In this document: positions 1,911 to 63,344 of the stretch, piece after piece | Position numbering within the stretch: position 1 is the first letter of the stretch | Layout of the letters: every line of letters starts with the position of its first letter | From: Eledone cirrhosa | Lineage: Eukaryota | Reading direction: 5' to 3' | DNA length: 64,000 nucleotides | Assembly (NCBI GenBank): GCA_964016885.1 | Contig: OZ024743.1 | Coordinates: forward strand, 70,370,001 to 70,434,000 | Notes under the pieces: model-generated | Told to the model about the DNA's origin: nothing | What the model saw: only the letters and a program-made list of their open reading frames with translations | The model's database searches: none | Program-made: the position numbers and the translations under genes

Positions 1911-1942
<32 letters not shown>

Positions 1943-2077
1943 CAAGTAAGTATGTTTTGAAACAGTGAGCGAGTTTGAAATTAGAAAATATATAGCTTTT
2001 ACCGTATTTTTAACTAAAGGAATTTTAGCTTGATAACGGGGTTTATAACCGTCAGATAAATGGAAAAAGATGAGTAT

Positions 2078-2148
2078 TGACGTACATGGGAGTCGAACCC
2101 ACATCTGTGGTTATCGCGACCACTGTGCTACCATTACACCAACACATC
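2078..2148 (-). tRNA. tRNA-like cloverleaf (non-canonical anticodon loop, CGA at 34-36)
   Basis: Reverse complement of 2591-2661. Confidence 0.65.
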
Positions 2149-2336
2149 ACCCATCTCTTTCCATTCAAATTAGAAACTACATTCTTAGCGAGTTTAAGTG
2201 GCAAGTAAGTATGTTTTGAAACAGTGAGCGAGTTTGAAATTAGAAAATATATAGCTTTCACCGTATTTTTAACTAAAGGAATTTTAGCTTGATAACGGGG
2301 TTTAGAAGCCTCAGATAAATGGAAAAAGATGAGTTT

Positions 2337-2407
2337 TGACGTACATGGGAGTCGAACCCACATCTGTGGTTATCGCGACCACTGTGCTACCATTACACCA
2401 ACACATC
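2337..2407 (-). tRNA. tRNA-like cloverleaf (second tandem unit)
   Basis: Same sequence as 2078-2148, offset by 259 bp. Confidence 0.65.
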
Positions 2408-2590
2408 ACCCATCTCTTTCCATTCAAAGGGTTCTAAACCCCGTTATCAAGCTAAAATTCCTTTAGTTAAAAATACGGTGAAAGCTATATATTTTCTAAT
2501 TTCAAACTCGCTCACTGTTTCAAAACATACTTACTTGCCACTTAAACTCGCTAAGAATCTAGTTTCTAATTTGAATGGAAAGAGATGGGT

Positions 2591-2661
2591 GATGTGTTGG
2601 TGTAATGGTAGCACAGTGGTCGCGATAACCACAGATGTGGGTTCGACTCCCATGTACGTCA
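2591..2661 (+). tRNA. tRNA-like cloverleaf, 71 nt; probably not a functional decoding tRNA
   Basis: GATGTGT/GTACGTC acceptor; GTGT-AATGGTA-GCAC D arm; GTGGT-CGCGATA-ACCAC; AGAT; GTGGG-TTCGACT-CCCAT. A box TGGTGTAATGG, B box GGTTCGACTCC, T5 run ~10 nt downstream. Confidence 0.7.
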
Positions 2662-2747
2662 ATACTCATCTTTTTCCATTTATCTGAGGGTTCTAAACCC
2701 CGTTATCAAGCTAAAATTCCTTTAGTTAAAAATACGGTGAAAGCTAT

Positions 2748-2779
<32 letters not shown>

Positions 2780-2780
<1 letters not shown>

Positions 2781-3042
2781 ACGAAGGAATTGTGGTAAGG
2801 AACCAGATGGACCATAACGCACCAAAGTACTCAATACTTAGAGTAGTAGAGTGGGTAATAGGAACAAGTATGACCTCGACGGCAGAGCTCAAGCCGCTTC
2901 GACGGCTATTTCTGGACTAAATAAGAATGTTTAGCCTGGTAAATAAATAGCCATTTATTTACCAGGCTAAACATTCTTATTTAGTCCAGAAATAGCCGTC
3001 GATACGGCTTGAGCTCTGCCGTCGGGGTCATACTTGTTCCTA
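2780..3042. mobile_element. Miniature hairpin element with ~78-nt tail and 3' half of an HHR (family A, copy 1)
   Basis: Inverted repeat ~2858-3042 and tail 2780-2857, with (TA)n flanks; homologous to 16741-16933 and 33654-33847. Confidence 0.8.
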
Positions 3043-3535
3043 TATATATACATATACATATACATATACATACATATATGGGTGTGAGCACGCGCACGAG
3101 TGGACGTGTATATATATATATGTTTATGTATACGCGCGTGTTTTTGTTTGGAGGCTAAAACTTCACACATTTCAACTATAGGTTTCAGGTTTCCCATCCT
3201 CAAGCAACTCTGAAATATTTATCAACATTGTTACTTTATTTTCTTTATATAAGAAACTAATTAAAACTTTCAAAATTATTACAAAACATAAATACTGAGA
3301 AGCCTTTCTGAAGAAGTAAGAAAAACTGACTGAGAGAATGAGAAAATAACCAGAGAAGGAAATAAAAATAGATGTGAAGAATTTACAAATAGAAGTTAAT
3401 TATGGGAAAGAAAAAAGGAAGATGAAATTGAATAAAGAAATAAAAAATGAAAAAAGAAAAAGGTAAGTATAGATATGATGTCATGACTACGTAAATCATG
3501 AATTTATATATAACATATATACAAAAGTCATGATT

Positions 3536-8669: not shown

Positions 8670-9026
<357 letters not shown>

Positions 9027-9316
9027 GAAATAACGAAACGAAATTAAATTTCGTTTCGTATGTAACTCACTTTTGTATGACTGACGCTTAAACAATTAAG
9101 TTAAAAAATGTACATCTACATATGCATACTGAAATACTAGTGTGTATATGAATACACACACGTATACATATGTAGGTGTACCAAGTCTTTCACTGGTCGC
9201 TTTACAGTGAGCGGCCCAGCTGTTCTGTATGTAAACACACAGACAAACCGGTTTCTAGAGTCATACTGGTTTTTGGGGGAACACCTTCCCCCTATTCTCC
9301 AGAAAGCCAGTCAAGG

Positions 9317-9361
9317 AATATTGAACTAGTTTCGTTGTTGTTACAACTCATCAGCAATATT
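9317..9361 (-). ncRNA. Minimal type I hammerhead ribozyme
   Basis: aatattg-CTGATGA-gttg-taacaa-caac-GAAA-ctag-TT-caatatt; palindromic ACTAGT stem III; outer helix 9294-9389. Confidence 0.85.
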
Positions 9362-9784
9362 TACCTATCTACCGGCCTTTCTGGAGAATTGTAAAAACAC
9401 ATATCGTTATATGCTTTGTCTATGAAAATGAGTAGTGGGCAGACTAATTTGCATAGAGTGTGCGTACGCACCGTTTCAGCGGAGACGATAAAAACAAATA
9501 ACGAAACGAAATTAAATTTCGTTTCGTTTGTAACTCACTTTTGTATGACTGACGCTTAAACAATTAAGTTAAAAAATGTACATCTACATATGCATACTGA
9601 AATACTAGTGTGTATATGAATACACACACGTATACATATGTAGGTGTACCAAGTCTTTCACTGGTCGCTTTACAGTGAGCGGCCCAGCTATTCTGTATGT
9701 AAACACACAGACAAACCGGTTTCTAGAGTCATACTGGTTTTTGGGGGAACACCTTCCCCCTATTGTCCAGAAAGCCAGACAAGG

Positions 9785-9829
9785 AATATTGAACTAGTTT
9801 CGTTGTTGTTACAACTCATCAGCAATATT
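9785..9829 (-). ncRNA. Minimal type I hammerhead ribozyme (second unit)
   Basis: Identical core 468 bp from the first. Confidence 0.85.
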
Positions 9830-10416
9830 TACCTATCTACCGGCCTTTCTGGAGAATTGTAAAAGCACATATCGTTATATGCTTTTTCTATGAAAATTAG
9901 TAGTGGGCAGACTAATTTGCATCGAGTGTGAGTACGCACCGGTTCAGCGGAGACGATAAAAACAAATAACGAAACGAAATTAAATTTCGTTTCGTTTGTA
10001 ACTCACTTTTGTATGACTGACGCTTAAACAATTAAGTTAAAAAATGTACATCTACATATGCATACTGAAATACTAGTGTGTATATGAATACACACACGTA
10101 TACATATGTAGGTGTACCAAGTCTTTCACTGGTCGCTTTACAGTGAGCGGCCCAGCTATTCTGTATGTAAACACACAGACAAACCGGTTTCTAGAGTCAT
10201 ACTGGTTTTTGGGGGAACACCTTCCCCCTATTCTCCAGAAAGCCAGACAAGGAATATTGAACTAGTTTCGTTGTTGTTACATACAGAATAGCTGGGCCGC
10301 TCACTGTAAAGCGACCAGTGAAAGACTTGGTACACCTACATATGTATACGTGTGTGTATTCATATACACACTAATATTTCAGTATGCATATGTAGATGTA
10401 CATTTTTTAACTTAAT

Positions 10417-10477
<61 letters not shown>

Positions 10478-16562: not shown

Positions 16563-16740
16563 TATATATCTGTATGTGTAAGTGTGTGAGCGTGTGTCTG
16601 TGTACATTCTTGTCTGGGTGTGTTAGCGCATATGACAAGCTGTAAAATTTAGTTACTGACGTAACCCAATTTCGGAGAGGAATGTCACGAGGAACAAATA
16701 TATAGAGAGATGTCATTACAAATATGTATATATATATATA

Positions 16741-16931
16741 TAGGAACGAGTAGGACCCCGACGGCTGAGCTCGAGACGTTTCGACGGCTAATTTTGGCCT
16801 GTATTATCCGTCGAAACGGCTAGAGCTCAGCCGTCGGGGTCCTACTCGTTCCTATTACCTACTCTACTACCCTAAGTATTGAGTACTTTGGTGCGTTATG
16901 ATCCATCTAGTTCGTTACCACATTTCCTTCG

Positions 16932-16933
<2 letters not shown>
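16741..16933. mobile_element. Miniature hairpin element family A, copy 2
   Basis: IR 16741-16854 and tail to 16933; GAAA-cggc..gccg-TC-ggggtc; (TA)n flanks. Confidence 0.8.
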
Positions 16934-16987
<54 letters not shown>

Positions 16988-18355: not shown

Positions 18356-18672
18356 CATATATATATATAATAATACATATAATGCTGTCTATGACATAAA
18401 TATCATTAGGTTATGTCAGGTGCTTGGTCATTCAGATATGATAAAATACAGATATATATCTATAATATATACATACATAGTCATAGACACGTACAAGGAT
18501 ACATACATACATACATACATACATACATACATACATACATTCATACATACATACATACATACATACATACATACATACATACATACATACATACATACAT
18601 ACATGATGGCTGCCCCCTCGTTATCGAGTATGGCCATTGCACAATAAAAAAAAAAAAAATAAAAAAAAAAAA

Positions 18673-18728
<56 letters not shown>

Positions 18729-18976
18729 TTTCTTTATTAACCACAAGGGTTTACATAAAGTAGACATTAAGGACAGTGCAGGACAATGCAGGACGGTACA
18801 AATGGGCATTTCTGCGTGTAAAAAACAAAAACAGAGGATGTAACAAAAAATAACAATGAAAAATTCCCCAATAGGGGGGAGACTTCGGAGGGACATTTGT
18901 GGAGAAAGCCCAGTAAAAAGCCACAATGACCCTGACCACCAAGGCAAGTGCCCTCTCCCAGTTTTCCACCTTTAAT

Positions 18977-21900
18977 TTACAGATATATGCTCAGAGTAGG
19001 CCCATTCACTCGGGCCATTCTTGCTTCTCTCACCCATCTTTCAACAAAATGCTGGGAAGAGAGCACTTCTCTCTCTACTCTGATTTTCCTTTTCAAATGA
19101 AATTTGAAAAAGTCAATCAGAGCATCACCGAAGAGGTAAGTGCTCGTCTTCAGCCCTTTCAAACGTGTCCACCATACTATCTCTTTCGCCATGGCCACCA
19201 GGCAGATAAAAACTGCCTGCCCTTCCCGGCTAAAGGAGGAGGGCGGGGCAATCCTCACGATGGACTCAGATGATAGCCGGATCCGTCCTAAACGCGACAG
19301 CAGGTGTTCGACATAAACCCACAAGTCAGCAATTTTCGGACACTGGACGAGTGCGTGCAGGACGGTTTCGTCGCCCTGCGCGCATCTCGGACATGCCCGG
19401 CTGACGGCACCTCCATGCCTGCAGAGTTTATCCCGAACTGGCAAGGCTCCTCGGTAGCACTGCCAGGCCAGAGATTTCTGGAAGTTGTCCATAGGCCCTG
19501 GCCCGAAAGTTCTTCCGAAGAGATTGGCTAGTTGATTTTCGTCGACGCCTAGAGTTTCCCCAAGTACGTCGTCGCTCTTCCCCTCCACTAATCCTCTATA
19601 GAACGCCGAGGTGGAGTTTCCACCGATCACATTGCCCGATTGGTCGAGGGCTGTGAGCGCCTGAAGACATTCCAGTCTCCAGGCGCTCCCTCTCGGTCTT
19701 CGCTTGACCCAGGACTGCAGCTCCGTCAAGGAAACGAGCTGGGGAAAAACGCGTCTAGCAAACGGCGACCACACCTGATCACCGTCGAGGAAGAGGTGGA
19801 GATGTCGTAGCCTGAGCGCGTGCCTGCGCATCATCAGCCACGGCATGCCCAGCCCTCCACGTAGCGGGTGTTGACAACAGATGGACCGCCTGACCATCGG
19901 AGCACGTCCCTTCCACAAAAAGCGAAAGAGCAAACGCTCCAGCGCAGTCAGGCGAGGCTTAGGACAAGGTACGACGGTTAGGCGGTAGCAGATGACAGAC
20001 GCGATGTACGCGTTAGCCACCTCCGCTCGACCTTTCAGGGATAGCTTCCTCTCCGCCCATTTCTGGGTGAGAGAAGCCACCCTGCTCGTCACCTCGTCCC
20101 AGTTTTTGTCCGTCTGGAGGTCCGGACCGAACCAGACCCCTAGCAATTTAACCGGTCCGTCCGTCCAGCGCCCGACGACGCTGTTGGACGGCATGGACCT
20201 GCCTCTCCAGGTGCCGAGCTGCAGGCCCACTGACTTTTCCTGGTTGATCATTGCTCCTGTCACCGCTTCGTATTCTCTTAGTGTAGTGCCGATCGCCTCG
20301 ATGTGTTTGGCGTTCGACACCACTACGGTGACATCGTCCGCATATGCTGACACGGATCTTCCGCATCCTAGTTCGCGCGGGACTCCCCTCAACGTCTCCA
20401 GTTTGTGCAGTAATGGCTCGAGAGTCAATACGTACAAGAGGGACGAGAGGGGACATCCTTGGCGGACCGAGCGCATGATGTTGAACGGTTCCGACAGGTG
20501 ACCGTTCACTCTCACCACAGAGCAGATGTCGCTGTGCATGGCAGCGATCCAGCCTCTGAAGACGGGCCCAAAGCCAGCCGCCCTCAGGACTGCCGCTAGG
20601 TAACGATGGTCGACCCTATCGAAAGCTTTCGACTGATCTAAATTGATCAAGGACCCACCCGTGCCAGGTTCCCTAGCTACCCTCTCTACGATGTATCGCA
20701 TGAGGTGGAGGTTGTCGTGGATGGATCTGTCGGGAATGGCGCATGTCTGCGCCTCTCCCACCAGACCACCAACGACAAGCGCCAACCTCTTTGCTAGCAC
20801 CTTGGCCAAAATCTTAAACTCTGTGTTTAGCAGAGTTATGGGCCGGAAATTGTCTATGTTATCCCCCTTGTTCGGATCCTTTCTCAGCAGTGCCACCGCT
20901 CCTCGGCTCACAGAACTGGGAATTCTCCCGTTCTGTTGCCAGTTGCAGTAGACGTCCGCCAAGAGGCCTCCGAACAAGTCTGGCATCTGTACGTAAAGTT
21001 CATAGGGCAGACCATCCAAACCAGGCGATTTACCCCTTGTGCAGCCAGTCATTGCCTCCCGTACTTCAGCGGCTGTTATCGGCTTTTCGCAACACCTCGC
21101 CTCAGTGGCCGAGAGCCGCGGCAGTCCGTCGAGGTAGACACTAAAGTCCATCCCTCTACCCGGCCCCCCGCTGCCCCCGAACAGCTGAGCGAAGTGTCGC
21201 TGAAAAGCTTCACACATTTGCCCGGGATCGAGTAGCATGCGCTCGTCGTGGTCCACCAAAGACCGGATCGTGGCTTTGTTGCCACGACGCGCCTCCGCCA
21301 CTCGGGCCCATTGAACGGCTTTCGTCCCCTCGTGTCTGAGAGCACGCACCCTAGCTCTGACAACGCAGCCTTCGTGCTTTGCATTGAAGAATTGGTCAAG
21401 GGCCAATTTCGCCGCAAGCACGTCGGTCGCAATGCCTTTGCTAAGCGCCTCGTCTAATTTTCTAACTAGTTCTCCCTCTGCTCTATTTTTCTCTATTGCT
21501 AAAGCCTTACTAAACCTAATCGATTCTATTCTAATCGCTCTTTTCAGAGCAAACCACCACTTGTTGTTGACGATGGCCCCCGTCAACGCCCGCTTAACTA
21601 GTTCGCTAATCCGGTCTCTGTAGGCCTTGCGCGCTGGTAAGGACGCGTTTAGCTTCCAGTAGCCGGGTCCTCGTCTATGAAGCCTATCTAAGTCAAGCAC
21701 ACAGGTCACGAATTTGTGGTCCGTGTAGCTGACTATCTTGAATTGTGGACAGCCTATGCTAGACCTATCTATTTCCCTACAAAATACTCTATCTAGATAT
21801 GATCTGGATGACCCTATGCGGTTTGTCCAAGTCCACATTGGCACATTCGGGAAATCCAATCGGTACCTGTCAGACAGTTCAAAACGCCTGAGCAGGTTGG

Positions 21901-22396
21901 TGAGGCTCTTGCACCCTCCACCCCTATCCGCTAATCCCACACAGTCCCAGCGTGCATCTAAGATCCCGTTCCAGTCGCCCACTAACACTAAAGAGCGGGA
22001 CGTTCCAAGAAAGGTCTCCAGACGCCGGAAGAAATCAGGCCGCCCTGCTCCTGTCGGGGCATAGACGGCCACTAGCCTGAAAGCTTGCCCGTCTCCGCTG
22101 GTCACGTCCAGCACCACCAGCTTACCCTCTGGGTCCAGGAAGATGGCCCGTATGGCGAGATCCAAACCTCTCCGAAAAAGCACAGCAACTCCTCCACCCG
22201 ATCCAGGACGGCTGGGAGATGCGTACACATCGTAGCCGCCGAAGATCGGTGCGAAGGCCCGTGCTTCGGAGATTCTGGTCTCGCTGATGGCCACTACATC
22301 TATGTTTAGTGACCTGAGGTCGTTGAGCAGGTGACCCTGCTTCCATGACGACCCCAAGCCACGCGCATTTATGCTGCCTATTCTGAGTGAGGTCAT
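18977..22396 (-). CDS. Tx1 ORF2: APE endonuclease + RT + C-terminal Cys/His motif (1139 aa)
   Basis: SINARGL, AISET, GDWN, SYLDR, TDH; NFRPITLLN, LDQSKAFDRV, RQGCPLS, YADD; CPRC..ETVLHALVQC. Confidence 0.95.
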   Translation of the reverse strand: MTSLRIGSINARGLGSSWKQGHLLNDLRSLNIDVVAISETRISEARAFAPIFGGYDVYASPSRPGSGGGVAVLFRRGLDLAIRAIFLDPEGKLVVLDVTSGDGQAFRLVAVYAPTGAGRPDFFRRLETFLGTSRSLVLVGDWNGILDARWDCVGLADRGGGCKSLTNLLRRFELSDRYRLDFPNVPMWTWTNRIGSSRSYLDRVFCREIDRSSIGCPQFKIVSYTDHKFVTCVLDLDRLHRRGPGYWKLNASLPARKAYRDRISELVKRALTGAIVNNKWWFALKRAIRIESIRFSKALAIEKNRAEGELVRKLDEALSKGIATDVLAAKLALDQFFNAKHEGCVVRARVRALRHEGTKAVQWARVAEARRGNKATIRSLVDHDERMLLDPGQMCEAFQRHFAQLFGGSGGPGRGMDFSVYLDGLPRLSATEARCCEKPITAAEVREAMTGCTRGKSPGLDGLPYELYVQMPDLFGGLLADVYCNWQQNGRIPSSVSRGAVALLRKDPNKGDNIDNFRPITLLNTEFKILAKVLAKRLALVVGGLVGEAQTCAIPDRSIHDNLHLMRYIVERVAREPGTGGSLINLDQSKAFDRVDHRYLAAVLRAAGFGPVFRGWIAAMHSDICSVVRVNGHLSEPFNIMRSVRQGCPLSSLLYVLTLEPLLHKLETLRGVPRELGCGRSVSAYADDVTVVVSNAKHIEAIGTTLREYEAVTGAMINQEKSVGLQLGTWRGRSMPSNSVVGRWTDGPVKLLGVWFGPDLQTDKNWDEVTSRVASLTQKWAERKLSLKGRAEVANAYIASVICYRLTVVPCPKPRLTALERLLFRFLWKGRAPMVRRSICCQHPLRGGLGMPWLMMRRHALRLRHLHLFLDGDQVWSPFARRVFPQLVSLTELQSWVKRRPRGSAWRLECLQALTALDQSGNVIGGNSTSAFYRGLVEGKSDDVLGETLGVDENQLANLFGRTFGPGPMDNFQKSLAWQCYRGALPVRDKLCRHGGAVSRACPRCAQGDETVLHALVQCPKIADLWVYVEHLLSRLGRIRLSSESIVRIAPPSSFSREGQAVFICLVAMAKEIVWWTRLKGLKTSTYLFGDALIDFFKFHLKRKIRVEREVLSSQHFVERWVREARMARVNGPTLSIYL

Positions 22397-22618
22397 GTTT
22401 AAAATAGAGTGGAAAAGATGGGAAAGACCACTTACCGTACTTTTGGTAGAGGAGGGATGGTTTTTAAATCCCTTTTCACTTGATCGTCTGGTGAAGGGAC
22501 CGTTGAATCGTCCCTTCGACTGGTCGTCGGCTCTTCTAAGAGAATGTCTGAGTATACTCTTCGATTGATGGTTCCTCCTAGGTCCCTGAAATCACCAACT
22601 GCGTTGGGGAATTTCGTT

Positions 22619-33601: not shown

Positions 33602-33653
<52 letters not shown>

Positions 33654-33654
<1 letters not shown>

Positions 33655-33844
33655 ACGAAGGCTGTGTGGTAAGGAACCAGATGGACCATTACGCACCAGA
33701 GTACTCAATACTTAGGGTAGTAGAGTGGGTAATAGGAAAATGTTTGACCCCGATGGCAGAGCTCTAGCCGTTTCGACAGCTATTTCTCGTCCAGAAATAG
33801 CCGTCGAAACGACTTGAGCTCTGCCGTCGGGGTCAAACATTTTC

Positions 33845-33847
<3 letters not shown>
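33654..33847. mobile_element. Miniature hairpin element family A, copy 3
   Basis: Tail 33654-33732 and IR 33733-33847; (TA)n flanks. Confidence 0.8.
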
Positions 33848-33922
<75 letters not shown>

Positions 33923-35224: not shown

Positions 35225-35277
<53 letters not shown>

Positions 35278-35279
35278 GA

Positions 35280-35521
35280 CAAGTATGTATGTTTTGAAAC
35301 AGTGAGCGAGTTTGAAATTAAGAAAATAGAATAGCTTTCACCGTATTTTTGACTAAAGATATTTTAGAACCCTCAGATAAATGGAAAAAGATGAGTATTG
35401 ACGTACATGGGAGTCGAACCCACATCTGTGGTTATCCAGACAACTGTGCTACCATTACACTAACACATCACCCATCTCCTTCCATTCAAATATGGAGATG
35501 GGTGATGTGTTGGTGTAATGG
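35280..35521 (-). mobile_element. Second copy of the tRNA-like foldback element (cloverleaf 35399-35469, loop CTGGATA)
   Basis: Homologous to 1943-2169 with the same terminus; short inverted arm ~35494-35521. Confidence 0.8.
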
Positions 35522-35524
35522 GAG

Positions 35525-35725
35525 CACACTTTAACAAGACACTTTATTTCACGTTGCTCCAGTTTACTCAGCTGCAAATGAGTACCAGCAATAGCTGGAG
35601 GTTTAACCCTGCTATGGACTGGCGTCCTGTCCAGGGAGGAGTCTTGTACTCTCAGTCGCTTCACGCCATGAAACCGGGATAAGCACCGGCCCAAAGAGCC
35701 TTCTGGCTTAAGACAGACTTTAGAC
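35525..35725 (+). mobile_element. CORE-like SINE body
   Basis: caagacactttatttcacgttgctccag...atggactggcgtcctgtccaggg...cttcacgccatgaaaccggga. Confidence 0.55.
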
Positions 35726-51393: not shown

Positions 51394-51483
51394 CTTCTTC
51401 TTCTTCTTATTCTTATTCTTCTTCTTATTATTATTATTATTATTATTATTATAATTATTATTATTATTATTATTATTGTTGTT

Positions 51484-52844
51484 ATTCCTTGAATCTCAGT
51501 CATTGATGTTGGTTAACTGGAAAGTCCGTTGGAATGAATATCAAGCCATTACCTGCAGCCTCAGATACTCAGGACATATCGGAGGGTTCTTGCTGTTCCA
51601 AGCAAGCATGCCTTTTGAAGCGTTCCAAAAAGCGTGAAGGGGCCGATTTTCTTTAACCATCCCTGGAAACTTTTGGAGATAGTCCCCAGTGCGCCTATGA
51701 CAATCGGGATCACTTTGACTTCATGGCAGTTCCAAATCCTTTTCACCTCCCACTTTAGGTCCTGGTATCGGTTAATTTTCTCCCTCTCCTTCTCTTGCAC
51801 TCTCGTGTCGAAAGGGCAGGCCACATCCACAATCAGACACGATCTTTTTTCTTTGTCCACAACCACCAGGTCAGGTCTATTGTGTTCCAGTTTTTTGTCC
51901 GCCTGTATCCTAAAATCCCACAGCACCTTCACCTGATTGTTCTCCATCACCGCCTCTGGCCTATGCTCATACCATTTCTCAGAATGTGGTAAATTGTTTA
52001 CTTTGCACAGGTGCCAGTGGATCACCCTACCCATCACATCGTGTCTCCAGCCCTTATAGTGGGTCTGGGCTAGGTGTTTACACTCGGACACAATGTGAGC
52101 CACAGTCTCCTCTCTCTCTCCACAGATCCTGCACAGTGGGCTAGCCTCCTCCTTGTAAATATGGTGCTTCAACCACTTCGTTTTGAGGGCCTGCTCCTGC
52201 GCAGCCATTAGCATTCCTTCTGTAGCCTTTTTGAGGTCTCCTCTTCTCAACCAGTTCCATGTCTGCGGATCTCTAAATTCAGTTTTCTCAAAGAAGGTAC
52301 TATGAAGGGATTTTCCCTTAAGGCTGCTCTTCCTCCTTGATGTTATTTCCTCCTTGGACATCCCCTGGCCTACTGTCCCCTCCTTCAGTACAGTTCTGAG
52401 CATTGGCTCCTTACTATAGGTCACGTATTTGTATAGGTTGTTTTTCTCCATCTGAACACAGTCCTCTATGCTGATAAGACATCTTCCATCTTCAGATCTC
52501 CTTAAGTAGAGTCTATCCACATCACTCCTCTTGTGGAACATGTTGTAGATAGTCAATAGCTTCCTAGTCTTCCTATCCATTTCTTTTTGTTCAGCAACAT
52601 TCCATCTCAGAATTCCCGCACTGTACCTAATAATAGACACAGCTCGGGAATTTACTGCGCTTATGGCATTTCTGCTGTTCAGATGTGACTTCAATACGCT
52701 CCTTACTCTCCAAATGTATTCAGTTCTTAACAATTTCTTCATGTTTTTGTTCTTTATGCCATCAGCCTCCAGAACGCCCAAATACTTGTATCCTTCCTCA
52801 GAGTCAATTTCCTTTATCATCTCACCTGTTGGTATCTGGATCCC

Positions 52845-52845
<1 letters not shown>
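51484..52845 (-). mobile_element. 5'-truncated R4/Dong-like LINE (copy A) with (TAA)n tail
   Basis: ORF 51561-52820: YKYLG, AAQEQ, CRICGEREETVAHIVSEC, RHD, RPDLVVVD..DVACP..EK, IGALG. Confidence 0.9.
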
Positions 52846-52920
<75 letters not shown>

Positions 52921-52923
<3 letters not shown>

Positions 52924-55427
52924 TCCCGTTCTGTTGCCAGTTGCAGTAGACGTCCGCCAAGAGGCCTCCGAACAAGTCTGGCATTTGTACGTAAAGTTCA
53001 TAGGGCAGGCCATCCAAACCAGGCGATATACCCATTGTGCAACCAGTCATTGCCTCCCGTACTTCAGCGGCTGTTATCGGCTTTTCGCAACACTCCGCCT
53101 CAGTGGCCGAAAGCCGCGGCAGTCCGTCAAGGTAGACACTAAAGTCCATCCCTTGATCCGGCCAGACTTGTTCGGAGGCCTCTTGGCGGAAGTCTACTGC
53201 AACTGGCAACAGAAAGGGAGAATTCCCTACTCTGTGAGCCGAGGAGCTGTGGCGCTGCTGAGAAAGGATCCGAACATGGGGTATAACATAGATAATTTTA
53301 GGCCCATAACTCTGCTAAACACAGAGTTCAAGATTTTGGCCAAGGTGCTAGCAAAGAGGTTGGCGCTTGTCGTTGGTGGTCTGGTGGGAGAGGCGCAGAC
53401 ATGCGCCATTCCCGACAGATCCATCCACGACAACCTCCACCTCATGCGATACATCGTAGAGAGGGTAGCTAGGGAACCTGGCACGGGTGGGTCCTTGATC
53501 AATTTAGATCAGTCGAAAGCTTTCGATAGGGTCGACCATCGTTACCTAGCGGCAGTCCTGGGTGCGGCTGGCTTTGGGCCCGTCTTCAGAGGCTGGATCG
53601 CTGCCATGCACAGCGACATCTGCTCTGTAGTGAGAGTGAACGGTCACCTTTCGGAACCGTTCAACCTCATGCGCTCGGTCCGCCAAGTATGTCCCCTCTC
53701 GTCCCTCTTGTACGTATTGACTCTCGAGCCATTACTGCACAAACTGGAGACGTTGAGGGGAGTCCCGCGCGAACTAGGATGCGGAAGATCCGTGTCAGCA
53801 TATGCTGACGATGTCACCGTAGTGGTGTCGAACGCCAAACACATCGAGGCGATCGGCACTACACTAAGAGAATACGAAGCGGTGACAGGAGCAATGATCA
53901 ACCAGGAAAAGTCAGTGGGCCTGCAGCTCGGCACCTGGAGAGGCAGGTCCATGCCGTCCAACAGCGTCGTCGGGCGCTGGACGGACGGACCGGTTAAATT
54001 GCTAGGGGTCTGGTTCGGTCCGGACCTCCAGACGGACAAAAACTGGGACGAGGTGACGAGCAGGGTGGCTTCTCTCACCCAGAAATGGGCAGAGAGGAAG
54101 CTATCCCTGAAAGGTCGAGCGGAGGTGGCTAACGCGTACATCGCGTCTGTCATCTGCTACCGCCTAACCGTCGTACCTTGTCCTAAGCCTCGCCTGACTG
54201 CGCTGGAGCGTTTGCTCTTTCGCTTTTTGTGGAAGGGACGTGCTCCGATGGTCAGGCGGTCCATCTGTTGTCAACACCCGCTACGTGGAGGGCTGGGCAT
54301 GCCGTGGCTGATGATGCGCAGGCACGCGCTCAGGCTACGACATCTCCACCTCTTCCTCGACGGTGATCAGGTGTGGTCGCCGTTTGCTAGACGCGTTTTT
54401 CCCCAGCTCGTTTCCTTGACGGAGCTGCAGTCCTGGGTCAAGCGAAGACCGAGAGGGAGCGCCTGGAGACTGGAATGTCTTCAGGCGCTCACAGCCCTCG
54501 ACCAATCGGGCAATGTGATCGGTGGAAACTCCACCTCGGCGTTCTATAGAGGATTAGTGGAGGGGAAGAGCGACGACGTACTTGGGGAAACTCTAGGCGT
54601 CGACGAAAATCAACTAGCCAATCTCTTCGGAAGAACTTTCGGGCCAGGGCCTATGGACAACTTCCAGAAATCTCTGGCCTGGCAGTGCTACCGAGGAGCC
54701 TTGCCAGTTCGGGATAAACTCTACAGGCATGGAGGTGCCGTCAGCCGGGCATGTCCGAGATGCGCGCAGGGCGACGAAACCGTCCTGCACGCACTCGTCC
54801 AGTGTCCGAAAATTGCTGACTTGTGGGTTTATGTCGAACACCTGCTGTCGCGTTTAGGACGGATCCAGCTATCATCTGAGTCTATCGTGAGGATTGCCCC
54901 GCCCTCCTCCTTTAGCCGGGAAGGGCAGGCAGTTTTTATCTGTCTGGTGGCCATGGCGAAAGAGATAGTATGGTGGACACGTTTGAAAGGGCTGAAGACG
55001 AGCACTTACCTCTTCGGTGATGCTCTGATTGACTTTTTCAAATTTCATTTGAAAAGGAAAATCAGAGTAGAGAAGGAAGTGCTCTCTTCCCAGCATTTTG
55101 TTGAAAGATGGGTGAGAGAAGCAAGAATGGCCCGAGTGAATGGGCCGACTCTGAGTATATATCTGTAAACTAAAGGTGGAAAACTGGGAGAGGGCACTTG
55201 CCTTGGTGGTCAGGGTCATTGTGGCTTTTTACTGGGCTTTCTCCACAAATGTCCCTCCGAAGTCTCCCCCCTATTGGGGAATTTTTCATTGTTATTTTCA
55301 TTGTTATTTTTGTTACATCCTCTGTTTTTGTTTTTTACACGCAGAAATGCCCATTTGTACCGTCCTGCATTGTCCTGCACTGTCCTTAATGTCTACTTTA
55401 TGTAAACCCTTGTGGTTAATAAAGAAA

Positions 55428-55429
<2 letters not shown>
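52921..55429 (+). mobile_element. 5'-truncated, 5'-inverted Tx1 copy 1
   Basis: Inverted 52921-53160, then sense RT to 3' UTR; nearly identical to 18727-21150. Confidence 0.92.
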
Positions 55430-55511
<82 letters not shown>

Positions 55512-55514
<3 letters not shown>

Positions 55515-58020
55515 TCCCGTTCTGTTGCCAGTTGCAGTAGACGTCCGCCAAGAGGCCTCCGAACAAGTCTGGCATTTGTACGTAAAGTTCATAGGGCAGG
55601 CCATCCAAACCAGGCGATATACCCATTGTGCAACCAGTCATTGCCTCCCGTACTTCAGCGGCTGTTATCGGCTTTTCGCAACACTCCGCCTCAGTGGCCG
55701 AAAGCCGCAGCAGTCCGTCAAGGTAGACACTAAAGTCCATCCCTTGATCCGGCCAGACTTGTTCGGAGGCCTCTTGGCGGAAGTCTACTGCAACTGGCAA
55801 CAGAAAGGGAGAATTCCCTACTCTGTGAGCCGAGGAGCTGTGGCGCTGCTGAGAAAGGATCCGAACATGGGGTATAACATAGATAATTTTAGGCCCATAA
55901 CTCTGCTAAACACAGAGTTCAAGATTTTGGCCAAGGTGCTAGCAAAGAGGTTGGCGCTTGTCGTTGGTGGTCTGGTGGGAGAGGCGCAGACATGCGCCAT
56001 TCCCGACAGATCCATCCACGACAACCTCCACCTCATGCGATACATCGTAGAGAGGGTAGCTAGGGAACCTGGCACGGGTGGGTCCTTGATCAATTTAGAT
56101 CAGTCGAAAGCTTTCGATAGGGTCGACCATCGTTACCTAGCGGCAGTCCTGGGTGCGGCTGGCTTTGGGCCCGTCTTCAGAGGCTGGATCGCTGCCATGC
56201 ACAGCGACATCTGCTCTGTAGTGAGAGTGAACGGTCACCTTTCGGAACCGTTCAACCTCATGCGCTCGGTCCGCCAAGTATGTCCCCTCTCGTCCCTCTT
56301 GTACGTATTGACTCTCGAGCCATTACTGCACAAACTGGAGACGTTGAGGGGAGTCCCGCGCGAACTAGGATGCGGAAGATCCGTGTCAGTATATGCTGAC
56401 GATGTCACCGTAGTGGTGTCGAACGCCAAACACATCGAGGCGATCGGCACTACACTAAGAGAATACGAAGCGGTGACAGGAGCAATGATCAACCAGGAAA
56501 AGTCAGTGGGCCTGCAGCTCGGCACCTGGAGAGGCAGGTCCATGCCGTCCAACAGCGTCGTCGGGCGCTGGACGGACGGACCGGTTAAATTGCTAGGGGT
56601 CTGGTTCGGTCCGGACCTCCAGACGGACAAAAACTGGGACGAGGTGACGAGCAGGGTGGCTTCTCTCACCCAGAAATGGGCGGAGAGGAAGCTATCCCTG
56701 AAAGGTCGAGCGGAGGTGGCTAACGCGTACATCGCGTCTGTCATCTGCTACCGCCTAACCGTCGTACCTTGTCCTAAGCCTCGCCTGACTGCGCTGGAGC
56801 GTTTGCTCTTTCGCTTTTTGTGGAAGGGACGTGCTCCGATGGTCAGGCGGTCCATCTGTTGTCAACACCCGCTACGTGGAGGGCTGGGCATGCCGTGGCT
56901 GATGATGCGCAGGCACGCGCTCAGGCTACGACATCTCCACCTCTTCCTCGACGGTGATCAGGTGTGGTCGCCGTTTGCTAGACGCGTTTTTCCCCAGCTC
57001 GTTTCCTTGACGGAGCTGCAGTCCTGGGTCAAGCGAAGACCGAGAGGGAGCGCCTGGAGACTGGAATGTCTTCAGGCGCTCACAGCCCTCGACCAATCGG
57101 GCAATGTGATCGGTGGAAACTCCACCTCGGCGTTCTATAGAGGATTAGTGGAGGGGAAGAGCGACGACGTACTTGGGGAAACTCTAGGCGTCGACGAAAA
57201 TCAACTAGCCAATCTCTTCGGAAGAACTTTCGGGCCGGGGCCTATGGACAACTTCCAGAAATCTCTGGCCTGGCAGTGCTACCGAGGAGCCTTGCCAGTT
57301 CGGGATAAACTCTACAGGCATGGAGGTGCCGTCAGCCGGGCATGTCCGAGATGCGCGCAGGGCGACGAAACCGTCCTGCACGCACTCGTCCAGTGTCCGA
57401 AAATTGCTGACTTGTGGGTTTATGTCGAACACCTGCTGTCGCGTTTAGGACGGATCCAGCTATCATCTGAGTCTATCGTGAGGATTGCCCCGCCCTCCTC
57501 CTTTAGCCGGGAAGGGCAGGCAGTTTTTATCTGTCTGGTGGCCATGGCGAAAGAGATAGTATGGTGGACACGTTTGAAAGGGCTGAAGACGAGCACTTAC
57601 CTCTTCGGTGATGCTCTGATTGACTTTTTCAAATTTCATTTGAAAAGGAAAATCAGAGTAGAGAAGGAAGTGCTCTCTTCCCAGCATTTTGTTGAAAGAT
57701 GGGTGAGAGAAGCAAGAATGGCCCGAGTGAATGGGCCGACTCTGAGTATATATCTGTAAACTAAAGGTGGAAAACTGGGAGAGGGCACTTGCCTTGGTGG
57801 TCAGGGTCATTGTGGCTTTTTACTGGGCTTTCTCCACAAATGTCCCTCCGAAGTCTCCCCGCTATTGGGGAATTTTTCATTGTTATTTTCATTGTTATTT
57901 TTGTTACATCCTCTGTTTTTGTTTTTTTTACACGCAGAAATGCCCATTTGTACCGTCCTGCATTGTCCTGCACTGTCCTTAATGTCTACTTTATGTAAAC
58001 CCTTGTGGTTAATAAAGAAA

Positions 58021-58022
<2 letters not shown>
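55512..58022 (+). mobile_element. 5'-inverted Tx1 copy 2 (tandem, period 2591 bp)
   Basis: Same inversion junction ccttgatccg|gccagacttg. Confidence 0.92.
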
Positions 58023-58052
<30 letters not shown>

Positions 58053-58061
58053 GTTATTGTT

Positions 58062-60350
58062 ATTCCTTGAATCTCAGTCATTGATGTTGGTTAACTGGAA
58101 AGTCCGTTGGATTGAATATCAAGCCACTACCTGCAGCCTCAGATATTCAGGACGTATCGGAGGGTTCTTGCCGTTCCAAGCAAGCATGCCTTTTGAAGCG
58201 TTCCAAAAAGCGTGAAGGGGCCGATTTTCTTTAACCATCCCTGGAAACCTTTGGAGATAGTCCCCAGTGCGCCTATGACAATCGGGATCACTTTGACTTC
58301 ATGGCAGTTCCAAATCCTTTTCACCTCCCACTTTAGGTCCTGGTATCGGTTAATTTTCTCCCTCTCCTTCTCTTGCACTCTCGTGTCGAACGGGCAGGCC
58401 ACATCCACAATCAGGCACGATCTTTTTTCTTTGTCCACAACCACCAGGTCAGGTCTATTGTGTTCCAGTTTTTTGTCCGTCTGTATCCTAAAATCCCACA
58501 GCACCTTCACCTGACTGTTCTCCATCACCGCCTCTGGCCTATGCTCATACCATTTCTCAGAATGTGGTAGATTGTTTACTTTGCACAGGTGCCAGTGGAT
58601 CACCCTGCCCATCACATCGTGTCTCCAGCCCTTATAGTGGGTCTGGGCTAGGTGTTTACACTCGGACACAATGTGAGCCACAGTCTCCTCTCTCTCTCCA
58701 CAGATCCTGCACAGTGGGCTAGCCTCCTCCTTGTAGATATGGTGCTTCAACCACTTCGTTTTGAGGGCCTGCTCCTGCGCAGCCATTAGCATTCCTTCTG
58801 TAGCCTTTTTGAGGTCTCCTCTTCTCAACCAGTTCCATGTCTGTGGATCTCTAAATTCAGTTTTCTCAAAGAAGGTACTATGAAGGGATTTTCCCTTAAG
58901 GCTGCTCTTCCTCCTTGATGTTATTTCCTCCTTGGGTATCCCCTGGCCTACTCTCCCCTCCTTCAGTACAGCTCTGAGCATTGGCTCCTTACTATAGGTC
59001 ACGTATTTGTATAGGTTGTTTTTCTCCATCTGAACACAGTCCTCTATGCTGATAAGACCTCTTCCACCCTCAGATCTCCTTAGGTAGAGTCTATCGACAT
59101 CACTCCTCTTGTGGAACATGTTGTAGATAGTCAATAGCTTCCTAGTCTTCCTATCCATTTCTTTTTGTTCAGCAACATTCCATCTCAGAATTCCCGCACT
59201 GTACCTAATAATAGACACAGCTCGGGAATTTACTGCGCTTATGGCATTTCTGCTGTTCAGATGTGACTTCAATACGCTCCTTACTCTCCGAATGTATTCA
59301 GTTCTTAACAATTCCTTCATTTTTTTGTTCTTTATGCCATCAGCCTCCAGAACGCCCAAATACTTGTATCCTTCCTCAGAGTCAATTTCCTTTATCATCT
59401 CACCTGTTGGTATCTGGATCCCGTTACTTCTGCTCAACCTACCCCTCCTCATCACAATGACTCCACATTTACCAATACCAAACTGCATACATATATCACT
59501 GCTGAAAATACGGACAGTGTCAACAAGCACATCCAACTCCTTCTCACTTTTCCCGAAGAGCTTAAGATCGTCCATGAAGAGGAGGTGATTGATGGTAAGC
59601 TCTCCCCTTCCCAACTTGTATCCTGCTCTCACTTTTCGCAGCATAATGGTCAAGGGCATCAGGGCAAGGACAAACAACAGAGGGGACAGGCTATCTCCCT
59701 GGAAGATACCTCTCTTGATCTTCACGCTTCCCAAGGATACTCCAGTTGATGTCAACTCTGTCTCCCAGGACCCCATACTCCTGCCCAGCAACTCTCTGAT
59801 GTTATCTGCCACCCTGAAGATCTCCAGGCTTTTGGTGATCCAGGAATGAGGCACCATGTCAAATGCCTTTCTGTAGTCTATCCATCCCATGGCAAGATCA
59901 GTGTGTCTCCTCCTGCAATTCCCCATTACCATCTTATCAATAAGCAACTGGTCCTTTGTACCACGTGACTTCTTTCGGCATCCTTTCTGTTCGTCCGGCA
60001 ACAAGTTGTTTGTGTGGAGGTGATGGTAGATTTCCTCAGACACAATGCTCGTCAACAGTTTCCACATTACGGGCAGACATGTGATAGGTCTATAGTTGGT
60101 AACATCATTACCCTTGATTCGGTCTTTCATTATCAGAACTGTGGTACCTTTTGTCAACCACTCTCGCACCTCACCCGACACCAAGCAGTCATTGAACATG
60201 GCCGTCAGCTTCGGGTGGAGGGATGTTAAATGTTTAATCCAATACCCCTGCACACCATCTGGGCCTGGTGATTTCCAGTTGGTCAGTTTTTTGGCTTGCC
60301 CCTTAAGAGTTTCAACTGTGATACTCAAATCAGTCTGTTGCTGTGCCTGC
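58062..60350 (-). mobile_element. 5'-truncated R4/Dong-like LINE (copy B), open RT + REL frame (58139-60328)
   Basis: WKSPGPDG, NYRPITCL, WIDYRKAFD, GIFQGDSLSP, HLLFMDD, CCHC and PD-(D/E)xK motifs. Confidence 0.92.
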
Positions 60351-60412
<62 letters not shown>

Positions 60413-60415
<3 letters not shown>

Positions 60416-62907
60416 TCCCGTTCTGTTGCCAGTTGCAGTAGACGTCCGCCAAGAGGCCTCCGAACAAGTCTGGCATTTGTACGTAAAGTTCATAGGGCAG
60501 GCCATCCAAACCAGGCGATATACCCATTGTGCAACCAGTCATTGCCTCCCGTACTTCAGCGGCTGTTATCGGCTTTTCGCAACACTCCGCCTCAGTGGCC
60601 GAAAGCCGCGGCAGTCCGTCAAGGTAGACACTAAAGTCCATCCCTTGATCCGGCCAGACTTGTTCGGAGGCCTCTTGGCGGAAGTCTACTGCAACTGGCA
60701 ACAGAAAGGGAGAATTCCCTACTCTGTGAGCCGAGGAGCTGTGGCGCTGCTGAGAAAGGATCCGAACATGGGGTATAACATAGATAATTTTAGGCCCATA
60801 ACTCTGCTAAACACAGAGTTCAAGATTTTGGCCAAGGTGCTAGCAAAGAGGTTGGCGCTTGTCGTTGGTGGTCTGGTGGGAGAGGCGCAGACATGCGCCA
60901 TTCCCGACAGATCCATCCACGACAACCTCCACCTCATGCGATACATCGTAGAGAGGGTAGCTAGGGAACCTGGCACGGGTGGGTCCTTGATCAATTTAGA
61001 TCAGTCGAAAGCTTTCGATAGGGTCGACCATCGTTACCTAGCGGCAGTCCTGGGTGCGGCTGGCTTTGGGCCCGTCTTCAGAGGCTGGATCGCTGCCATG
61101 CACAGCGACATCTGCTCTGTAGTGAGAGTGAACGGTCACCTTTCGGAACCGTTCAACCTCATGCGCTCGGTCCGCCAAGTATGTCCCCTCTCGTCCCTCT
61201 TGTACGTATTGACTCTCGATCCATTACTGCACAAACTGGAGACGTTGAGGGGCGTCCCGCGCGAACTAGGATGCGAAAGATCCGTGTCAGCATAGGCGGA
61301 CGATGTCACCGTAGTGGTGTCCAACGCCAAACACTTCCAGGCGATCGGCACTACACTAAGAGAATACGAAGCGGTGACAGGAACAATGATCAACCAGGAA
61401 AAGTCAGTGGGCCTGCAGCTCGGCACCTGGAAAGGCAGGTCCATGCCGTCCAACAGCGTCGTCGGGCGCTGGACGGACGGACCGGTTAAATTGCTAGGGG
61501 TCTGGTTCGGTCCGGACCTCCAGACGGACAAAAACTGGGACGAGGTGACGAGCAGGTTATCTTCTCTCACCCAGAAATGGGCGGAGAGGAAGCTATCCAT
61601 GAAAGGTCGAGCGGAGGTGGCTAACGCGTACATCGCGTCCGTCATCTGCTACCGCCTGACCGTCGTACCTTGTCCTAAGCCCCGCCTGACTGCGCTGGAG
61701 CGTTTGCTCTTTCGCTTTTTGTGGAAGGGACGCGCTCCGATGGTCAGGCGGTCCATCTGTTGTCAACACCCGCTACGTGGAGAGCAGGGCATGCCGTGGC
61801 TGATGATGCGCAGACACGCGCTCAGGCTACGACATCTCCACCTCTTCCTCGACGGTGATCAAGTGTGGTTGCCGTTTGCTAGACGCGTTTCTCCCCAGCT
61901 CGTTTCCTTGACGGAGCTGCAGTCCTGGGTCAAGCGAAGACCGAGAGGGGGCGCTTGGAGACTGGAATGTTTTCAGGCGCTCACAGCCCTCGACCAATCG
62001 GGCAATGTGATCGCTGGAAACTCCACCTCGGCGTTCTATAGAGGATTAGTGGAGGGGAAGAGCGACGACGTACTTGGGGAATCTCTAGGCCTCGACGAAA
62101 ATCAACTAGCCAATCTCTTCGGAAGAACTTTCGGGCCGTGGCCTATGGACAACTTCCAGAAATCCCTGGCCTGGCAGTGCTACCGAGGAGCCTTGCCAGT
62201 TCGGAATAAACTCTACAGGCATGGAGGTGCCGTCAGCCGGGCATGTCCGAGATGCGCGCAGGGCGACGAAACCGTCCTGCACGCACTCGTCAAGTGTCCG
62301 AGAATTGCTGACTTGTGGGTTTATGTCGAACACCTGCTGTCGCGTGTAGGACGAATCCGGTTATCAGCTGAGTCCATCGTGAGGATTGCCCCGCCCTCTT
62401 CCTTTAGCCGGGAAGGGCAGGCAGTTTTTATGTCTGGTGGCCATGGCGAAAGAGATAGTATGGTGGACACGTTTGAAAGGGCTGAAGACGAGCAGTTTCC
62501 TCTTCGGTGATGCCCTGATTGACTTTTTCAAATTTCATTTGAAAAGGAAAATCAGGGTAGAGAAGGAAGTGCTCTCTTCCCAACATTTTGTTGAAAGACA
62601 GGTGAGAGAAGCAAGAATGGCCCGAGTGAATGGGCCTACTCTGAGTATGTGTCTGTAAATTAAAGGTGGAAAACTGGGAGAGGGCACTTGCCCTGGTTGT
62701 CAGGGTCACTGTGGCTTTTTAATGGGCTTTCTCCACGAATGTCCCTCGGAAGTATCCCCCCTATTGGGGAATTTTTTCATTGTTCTATTATTACATCCTC
62801 TGTCTCTTGTTTTTTACACGCAGAAATGCCCATTTGTACCGCCCTGTATTGTCCTGTACTGTCCTTAAGGTCTACTTTATGTAGACCCTTGTCGTTAATA
62901 AAGAAAG

Positions 62908-62908
<1 letters not shown>
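60413..62908 (+). mobile_element. 5'-inverted Tx1 copy 3, mosaic (diverged after ~61220)
   Basis: Same inversion; the YADD tyrosine codon is a stop, and there is a later frameshift. Confidence 0.9.
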
Positions 62909-62949
<41 letters not shown>

Positions 62950-63298
62950 GTAGAGAGGGAAGTGCTCTCTTCCCAGCATTTTCTTGAAAGATGGGTGAGA
63001 TAAGCAAGAATGGCCCGAGTGAATGGACCTATTCTGAGTATATGCCTGTAAATTGAAAGTGGAAAACTGTGCGAGCGCATTTTCCCTGGTGGTCAGGGTC
63101 ACCATGGCTTTTTTCTTATGGGCTTTCTCCACGATGGCCCTCCCAGGTCTCCCCCCCCCCTATTGGGGAATTTTTCATTATTTATTTTGTTACATCCTCT
63201 GTTTTTTGTTTTTTTTACACGCAGAAATACCCATTTGTACCTTCCTGTACTCTCCTTAATCTCTACTTTGTGTAAACCCTTGTGGTTAATAAAGAAAG

Positions 63299-63299
<1 letters not shown>
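62950..63299 (+). mobile_element. Short, older Tx1 3' end in (ATT)n
   Basis: Diverged copy of the last ~350 bp. Confidence 0.85.

Positions 63300-63344
<45 letters not shown>

Follow-up and report, generated by a model that had tools for sequence, protein, structure and literature searches.

The segment at positions 1943-2759 of the window (the whole 64,000-nucleotide stretch of Eledone cirrhosa DNA analysed here) is a single insertion of a 259-nt repeat family that carries a tRNA-like module. The family is non-coding, is present in thousands of copies and is sited in TA microsatellites in the pattern of Penelope-like elements (PLEs). Judged by the defining features of each class, it falls outside retrozymes, standard SINEs and tRNA genes; it is an abundant PLE-type non-autonomous element with a tRNA module. 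We consider it probable that this is a SINE-like element mobilised by a PLE, and that its tRNA provides a Pol III promoter and undergoes modification in vivo. What we infer are the partner, the polymerase and the chemistry behind the cDNA stop described below.

Layout of the insertion and of its family

Units are numbered u1-u259 (window 1943-2201), with the plus strand in cDNA orientation and the tRNA strand as RNA sense; tRNA G1 is u206, A58 is u151 and base 73 is u136. The insertion leads from (TA)n through u1-259 and u1-227 into an inverted arm, which runs from u110 back past the unit boundary to u38, and ends in (TA)n. Its features, and a second family copy in the window, are:

1859-1942, (TA)n target, left flank
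1943-2428, minus strand (RNA sense), arm 1, with priming at the tail end: a complete 259-nt unit (u1-u259, 1943-2201) followed by u1-u227 (2202-2428)
1943-1979, minus strand, 37-nt one-sided tail (u1-u37) between the two priming sites, as placed by the outer ends of 170 arms
2078-2148, minus strand, tRNA-like cloverleaf copy 1 (u206-u136; Rfam), A58 at 2093 (u151)
2337-2407, minus strand, tRNA-like cloverleaf copy 2 (Rfam)
2428-2759, plus strand, arm 2, inverted: outer end at u38, crossing the unit boundary to about u110
2573-2590, plus strand, 5' arm of the 18-bp helix below the cloverleaf
2591-2661, plus strand, tRNA-like cloverleaf copy 3 (Rfam): A box 2598-2608, B box 2640-2650, A58 at 2646
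2664-2681, plus strand, 3' arm of the 18-bp helix, including T5 (2671-2675)
2684-2746, plus strand, possible decayed hammerhead half (CUGAGGG ... GAAAGC), with a weak likeness to the hammerhead region of the adjoining Hydra-type PLE
2760-2780, (TA)n target, right flank
35277-35530, minus strand, second family copy, from an older subfamily (86% identity, loop CUGGAUA): it extends from the tail to u228 and has a short inverted piece

The 259-bp tandem units described in the initial annotation were recovered by TRF in 1943-2428 (period 259 bp, 1.9 copies, 97%). Its inverted arm, one-sided tail of ~37 nt and (TA)n flanks were present as well, the arms 1980-2311 and 2428-2759 being 332 nt each and 98% complementary.

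Genome-wide, a 36-nt stretch of the tail had 394 exact matches, and exact 22-mer matches numbered 3,923 for u122-143, which lies 3' of the stop, versus 1,824 for u149-170, which lies 5' of it. Initial candidates for the family numbered 2,117 and 1,950; 40 from each set were scored. Structure was read from a position-sampled set (the first 100 of the 394 tail matches, comprising 89 distinct loci and 170 arms) and from a larger tail-anchored sample of 118 loci and 216 arms. Copies of the young subfamily are about 97-99% identical and those of older subfamilies about 78-92%; a subfamily with a 290-nt unit and a shifted, broken acceptor end has at least 691 exact matches (arms). An older subfamily also forms a satellite-like head-to-tail array of about 28 units at 80-90% identity (contig C3, about 271.499-271.506 Mb; locus L191, 2411-9586). 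Divergence along the unit is 0.021-0.036, with no region standing out as clearly more conserved. Older-type pieces occur in contigs bearing three other organism labels, two of them with the same u146 fold-back, in small shares that may represent contamination.

In the position-sampled set, a TA run was found at one or both ends of 86/89 loci, an inverted junction in 70/89 and a crossed unit boundary in 22/89. Outer ends of arms lay at u1-4 in 88/170 and at u36-46 in 62/170, that is, at two fixed ends 37-46 nt apart. This structure is of PLE type and agrees with the earlier proposal of a non-autonomous, PLE-mobilised family whose copies share a tail and tandem or inverted structure. Among 93 inverted pairs in the 118 loci, 82 joined one tail arm to one internal arm and none joined two tail arms, and the internal arm frequently reached further than the tail arm; the pairing and the longer internal reach point to twin priming and not to the fold-back of a single cDNA. 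Where the tail arm was short, the internal arm stopped independently at u141-145 in 5/21 loci. At inherited variants, units agreed in 27/73 comparisons within a locus versus 331/3,896 between loci. Within single insertions of the young subfamily, 27 comparisons at inherited sites agreed and 46 disagreed (including a double change in L008 and L009), the count of disagreements being inflated by CpG recurrence. Such frequent disagreement within loci points to mixed multimeric templates and not to one monomer circle.

The initial annotation had also suggested that an autonomous PLE might share the tail at 1943-1980. None did among 79 PLE loci of this genome (29 Hydra-type and 50, i.e. 30 + 20, GIY-YIG loci, a sample outside which its Naiads lie), and searches of the Naiad/Hydra consensus file in the supplement of PMC8557442 returned no match to the unit. 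A negative-context tail pattern gave 119 matches, and all 30 inspected were family variants or truncations. At locus L332, an arm of the family is fused, with no TA run in between, to an arm of a hammerhead-bearing autonomous PLE whose tail is 59 nt long, possibly by co-insertion; as 1 of 31 open-ended arms, this chimera was too weak a pointer to name a partner.

The neighbour of the insertion, at 2781-3043, represents the 3' end of a Hydra-type PLE, an autonomous element whose 3' UTR is 1.1 kb and whose tail is 77 nt; this 3' end is also found at 16698-16983 and 33604-33890 and at 2713-3066 (minus strand) of locus L365. On the other side, 96-1841 holds a broken Hydra-clade PLE with a GLYRDD-type RT fragment and an inverted 3' UTR piece, a very abundant repeat (29,310 initial candidates). 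Elsewhere in the window, 51442-63344 and 18643-22591 consist of tandem 2.6-kb units in which two LINE types are joined at (TTA)n runs.

The tRNA module and a possible hammerhead relic

All three cloverleaf copies match the Rfam tRNA model at 44.3 bits, against a gathering score of 29, and the A and B boxes and downstream T5 of the initial annotation are present in the unit sequence. Its 71-nt cloverleaf stands as a tRNA by the Rfam score and is the minimum-free-energy (MFE) fold of the isolated 71 nt, but it is not the MFE fold inside the whole unit, where its acceptor pairs have predicted probabilities of 0.02-0.38. Fold z-scores are -4.5 for the tRNA plus helix and -2.5 for the whole unit. 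The helix, which had been given as ~19 bp with G-U pairs on the tRNA strand, does contain three G-U pairs but measures 18 bp, and a 3-nt 3' bulge separates it from the acceptor stem. G-U pairs, which occur in both the helix and the acceptor stem, identify which strand is the RNA.

The anticodon loop is non-canonical, with G33 in this copy and U37 in 143/144. With U37 fixed and positions 33-34 varying from one subfamily to another, the module cannot decode; a functional tRNA gene or array, for which a canonical loop (U33, purine 37) and a stable anticodon would be expected, was excluded. An ARAGORN call of tRNA-Ser was dropped, as the loop is wrong and there is no long variable arm. Host tRNA-Gln and tRNA-Gly were found with a relaxed D-arm pattern, and tRNA-Gln is the closest host tRNA (41/71 identical to the young copy) in a comparison set of only Thr, Gln and Gly, which makes an origin from tRNA-Gln provisional. 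All 11 of the 11 stem pairs that differ from tRNA-Gln are still paired, 10 of them via a double change, an outcome matched by 8 in 100,000 random trials; in an older copy, pairing is kept in 10/12 changed pairs.

Covariation within the family, which the initial annotation had named as a check, was not seen: 21 tRNA stem pairs in 150 copies contain no double compensatory change, and recurrent stem variants in these copies kept pairing 8 times and broke it 5 times. Recurrent variants are absent from the A box, the B box shows only two recurring C>U changes, and both boxes are retained across subfamilies about 10-20% apart. The broken-acceptor subfamily has U1.C72 and G2.G71 mismatches and an intact T-arm. 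A separate repeat (L093 and L095-L103, positions 1501-1573) also carries a tRNA-like module, of 53-72 bits and with a variable anticodon, between long AT-rich conserved flanks; it has no tandem or inverted structure near the module.

As the initial annotation had reported, the unit lacks a CUGANGA/GAAA core: strict CUGANGA is absent from both strands of five unit variants, and Rfam gave no ribozyme match at E<=5 in 1930-3060. A hammerhead on the strand opposite the tRNA was rejected because its core is broken. The annotation had contrasted the unit with similar elements in the window that bear hammerheads. Strict cores do lie at 9354, 9822, 39269 and 40863, but the adjoining 2781-3043 element ends before its core. 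The cores at 9354 and 9822 are minimal ones on the minus strand of a retrozyme-type element (9020-10421; 468-bp tandem and inverted arm). Full copies of the adjoining Hydra-type family have a hammerhead-like fold with complete stems I-III, a GUC site and, in 17/22, the variant core CUGAGAA, and no tRNA was found in the 3' region of this family. On the 3' side of the tRNA, u45-u95 resembles that Hydra motif in its stem II and GAAA half, with alignment scores of 38-43 versus shuffle means of 25-27, a weak 45-nt match whose score was equalled by 3-24 of 1,000 shuffles. With a relic profile, older copies had a median of 3.1 bits, the 99th percentile of shuffles being 2.2; the profile gave nothing for young copies. 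No stem I can form here, and the segment is not foldable as a ribozyme. It may be a degenerate hammerhead-like relic, a likeness that serves only as a lead because it was first noticed by eye.

Arm ends and the proposed route of insertion

In the tail-anchored sample, 89 of the 157 arms that reach u141 end at u141-151 (7.7 expected), in 55 loci; the stop takes 67/103 young and 22/54 old arms. No arm of 68 ended at u152-158 (2.1 expected), a gap that is not significant alone. Genome-wide, ends scored as an arm followed by two non-matching bases numbered 51 after u150, 66 after u151 and 4 after u153, and inspection found genuine junctions in 19/20, 17/20 and 3/4, respectively, the last base of the u151 class often being owed to microhomology. 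These three counts and the 0/68 sample define an edge at tRNA bases 59/58: the cDNA reaches base 59 and seldom ends two or three bases further.

The stop is all-or-none per insertion. When the tail arm passes, the internal arm passes (23/23); when the tail arm stops, the internal arm stops (35/38). Single-arm insertions also stop at the T-arm (11/18). Exact symmetric fold-backs number 396 genome-wide. Most junctions lie on three overlapping 4-nt palindromes at u138-146; they do not concentrate on the unit's other 4-nt palindromes. Most ends stop 4-9 nt before base 59, a distance that has to be explained by trimming. The stop persists in the broken-acceptor subfamily with its intact T-arm (49 of the first 100 matches): counted by eye, 42 leave the unit before u150 and 7 end at u150/151.

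PLE families without a tRNA also show stop clusters, so that a cluster alone is ordinary and the edge at 59/58 is the special part. In the adjoining Hydra family, about 60/89 incidental arms end 127-147 nt from the tail, and other PLE families in this genome have clusters at other positions. A universal length limit of 140 nt was rejected, as the stop base is unchanged in internal arms, which by then measure only about 100 nt, and the stops of other families lie elsewhere. The first loci showed an end cluster at u224-229, the base of the helix, that was gone in the position-sampled set (1/44), and a second-pass cluster at u152-171 (8/10) did not replicate (0/12). A small cluster at u172-175, in the anticodon loop, was observed in a T-arm-selected sample (5/80 in the first pass, 5/12 in the second), its exact base being blurred by microhomology. 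Another TA-targeting family (L096, L005, L269, L315) has a 36-nt tail and symmetric fold-backs at 225-236 nt.

The base-59/58 edge is what a block to reverse transcriptase (RT) at m1A58 would leave and suggests that the RNA is likely tRNA-methylated. Retroviral RT is known to stop strongly at m1A58 (PMC8599865), and activity of TRMT6/61A on precursor tRNAs is reported (bioRxiv 10.64898/2026.05.17.725798). Read-through arms show no excess substitution at A58 (4/166 differ), and two ordinary SINEs show no A58 stop (3/89 and 0/9).

A second group of ends lies at the tRNA 5' end. In the tail-anchored sample of 118 loci, 10/55 ends fell at u203-207 (1.2 expected), in 8 loci; in a replicate of 60 further loci drawn by a T-arm pattern, 5/65 did (2.5 expected, p = 0.11), with ends spread over u197-209. 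The cluster is not significant on replication, and ends near +1 fit a start by Pol III or RNase P equally. In a transcript beginning at +1, the predicted acceptor stem does not form. T5 is conserved 11 nt past the tRNA and should halt Pol III before the tail, so the Pol III model needs leaky termination. With the boxes in place and tRNA-like handling indicated by the stop edge, the Pol III promoter role advanced by the initial annotation is nevertheless probable from the sequence.

We propose the following route. Pol III would start at or just before tRNA +1 and sometimes pass T5 into the tail; at tandem loci, read-through of the next unit would restore the 52 nt upstream of the tRNA, much as in a pseudo-LTR. 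Both strands of a (TA)n break, presumably with a PLE enzyme, would prime cDNA on the same RNA at u1-4 and u36-46, the two ends seen in the arms, and the two cDNAs would be joined head to head to give inverted arms and a one-sided tail. On about half of the templates the cDNA ends at tRNA base 59, putatively at a methylated A58. Stopped ends would be trimmed to the nearby palindromes and joined, yielding short promoter-less fold-back copies, and only read-through copies such as 1943-2759 would retain the tRNA and could seed further rounds.

The same PLE-mobilised Pol III element could instead be stopped by RNA structure or by a cut in the T-loop, which we think unlikely. In other PLE families of this genome, stops fall in structured 3' regions that have no tRNA, the T hairpin (-5.2 to -6.3 kcal/mol) has the modal junction, u146, at its base, and a leading internal RT that melted the fold would likewise correlate the two arms; yet the upper edge falls inside the loop, with a more than tenfold drop by u153, and the anticodon hairpin (-4.0) shows no comparable stop. 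A cut between bases 58 and 59 would give an identical edge, which DNA alone cannot separate from methylation.

Long RNAs can be cut at a tRNA mimic by RNase P/Z, as in MALAT1/mascRNA. The initial annotation had allowed for RNase P/Z processing in place of a ribozyme; in such a model, RNase P, RNase Z or both would cut a long multimeric RNA (from Pol II or read-through) at the tRNA mimic. This found no support, and we judge it improbable. A sharp end cluster at the RNase Z site is absent, the subfamily with mismatched 1-72 and 2-71 pairs spread to at least 691 arms, the 18-bp leader-trailer helix would bury both cut sites, and the 27-to-46 split at inherited sites in the young subfamily opposes a single monomer circle. 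The u203-207 ends in 8/118 loci, several on both arms, would suit such cutting, but G1 after U is a plausible Pol III start too. T5, which argues against plain Pol III read-through, a mild end excess at u116-136 (0.0047 vs 0.002 per nt) and the possible decayed hammerhead within the unit also fit it. Naiad PLEs are described in PMC8557442 as transposing into (TA)n without canonical hammerheads, so no substitute for a ribozyme is required.

Least probable, and in our view very much so, is that the tRNA is a passenger, i.e. that an ordinary non-autonomous PLE or satellite captured a tRNA-like piece and is transcribed from flanking promoters. The even divergence along the unit, the lack of compensatory change within the family and the array of roughly 28 units would all be expected of a passenger. 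Both end clusters, however, coincide with tRNA landmarks (59/58 and +1), the boxes have been retained between subfamilies, and the stems are still paired despite divergence from tRNA-Gln.

Beyond the Pol III-driven, PLE-mobilised element that we favour, a wider reading is possible, although we stop just short of calling it probable: a class of Penelope-carried SINEs in which a retrozyme lost its hammerhead after gaining a tRNA promoter, host-methylated A58 aborts about half of the insertions, thousands of junctions preserve a fossil record of RNA modification at base resolution, and the element's spread is limited by tRNA methylation. Should the base-59 edge prove to be m1A58, germ-line RNA modification could be read from insertion breakpoints with no need of RNA data, and tRNA methylation would be a candidate brake on a retroelement. 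PMC8557442 (section 15) treats priming, inversion and tail formation in PLEs as unsolved and as lacking an in-vitro system; hundreds of junctions of this family support twin priming on one RNA, and the unit offers a short template for testing.

Comparison with known systems

Our literature search found no account of a tRNA-bearing, PLE-mobilised non-autonomous element or of A58-truncated retroelement copies; Repbase, Dfam and SINEBase lay outside the search and may file the family as a SINE or unknown repeat. A MITE is ruled out by the asymmetric ends (u1 versus u38/46) and widely varying lengths.

Schistosoma SMalpha has a tRNA-related promoter. As described in PMC8490949, this SINE-like 335-bp element shares with the family a short retrozyme-type tandem repeat, but it retains an active type I hammerhead, whereas the 259-nt family has a full cloverleaf and no working ribozyme. 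Animal non-LTR retrozymes, in the accounts of PMC7229834 and bioRxiv 10.64898/2026.07.22.740005, resemble it in their low-GC unit of about 300 nt, their range from monomers to long arrays and their PLE link. Unlike them it has no type I hammerhead, the defining feature of retrozymes, and the mixed units within insertions argue against a single circular template; a term search of the accessible text of bioRxiv 10.64898/2026.07.22.740005 found no mention of tRNA.

PLE structure as set out in PMC8557442 matches the tails, partial tandems and inverted arms of the family, and the same source gives (TA)n targets for Octopus Naiad and Hydra and Naiads without canonical hammerheads. The closest likeness there is to non-autonomous PLEs (MRC1-type Chlamys; Naiad, Neptune, Hydra), with (TA)n, a one-sided tail of 30-40 nt, partial tandems, a 5' inverted arm and head-to-tail multimers. 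Unlike these, the 259-nt family has an internal tRNA module, and no 3' likeness to an autonomous family was found among the PLE loci covered beyond the weak 45-nt match to the Hydra hammerhead region; in the sections of PMC8557442 covered, the sole mention of tRNA concerns selenocysteine.

With tRNA-SINEs, including octopus OK, OR1 and OR2, the family shares tRNA-derived A and B boxes, a non-decoding anticodon and an RNA that probably starts near +1. It differs in that the tRNA is internal in a permuted unit (52 nt precede it), that most loci are inverted or tandem and not monomers, that insertion into (TA)n is twin-primed and inverted, and that no A-tail or LINE-type 3' end is seen; the comparison with OK, OR1 and OR2 is one of structure and not of sequence. 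In TRIMp3 elements (Helenus, Ajax, Cassandra; PMC10886601), a small-RNA-gene sequence likewise lies in the terminal repeat of a non-autonomous retroelement and is read as a Pol III promoter. Those are LTR elements, whereas the 259-nt family has no LTR pair or fixed LTR-internal-LTR layout and has variable inverted arms. It is their PLE-type analogue, and would be to PLEs what SINEs are to LINEs and TRIMp3 elements to LTR retroelements.
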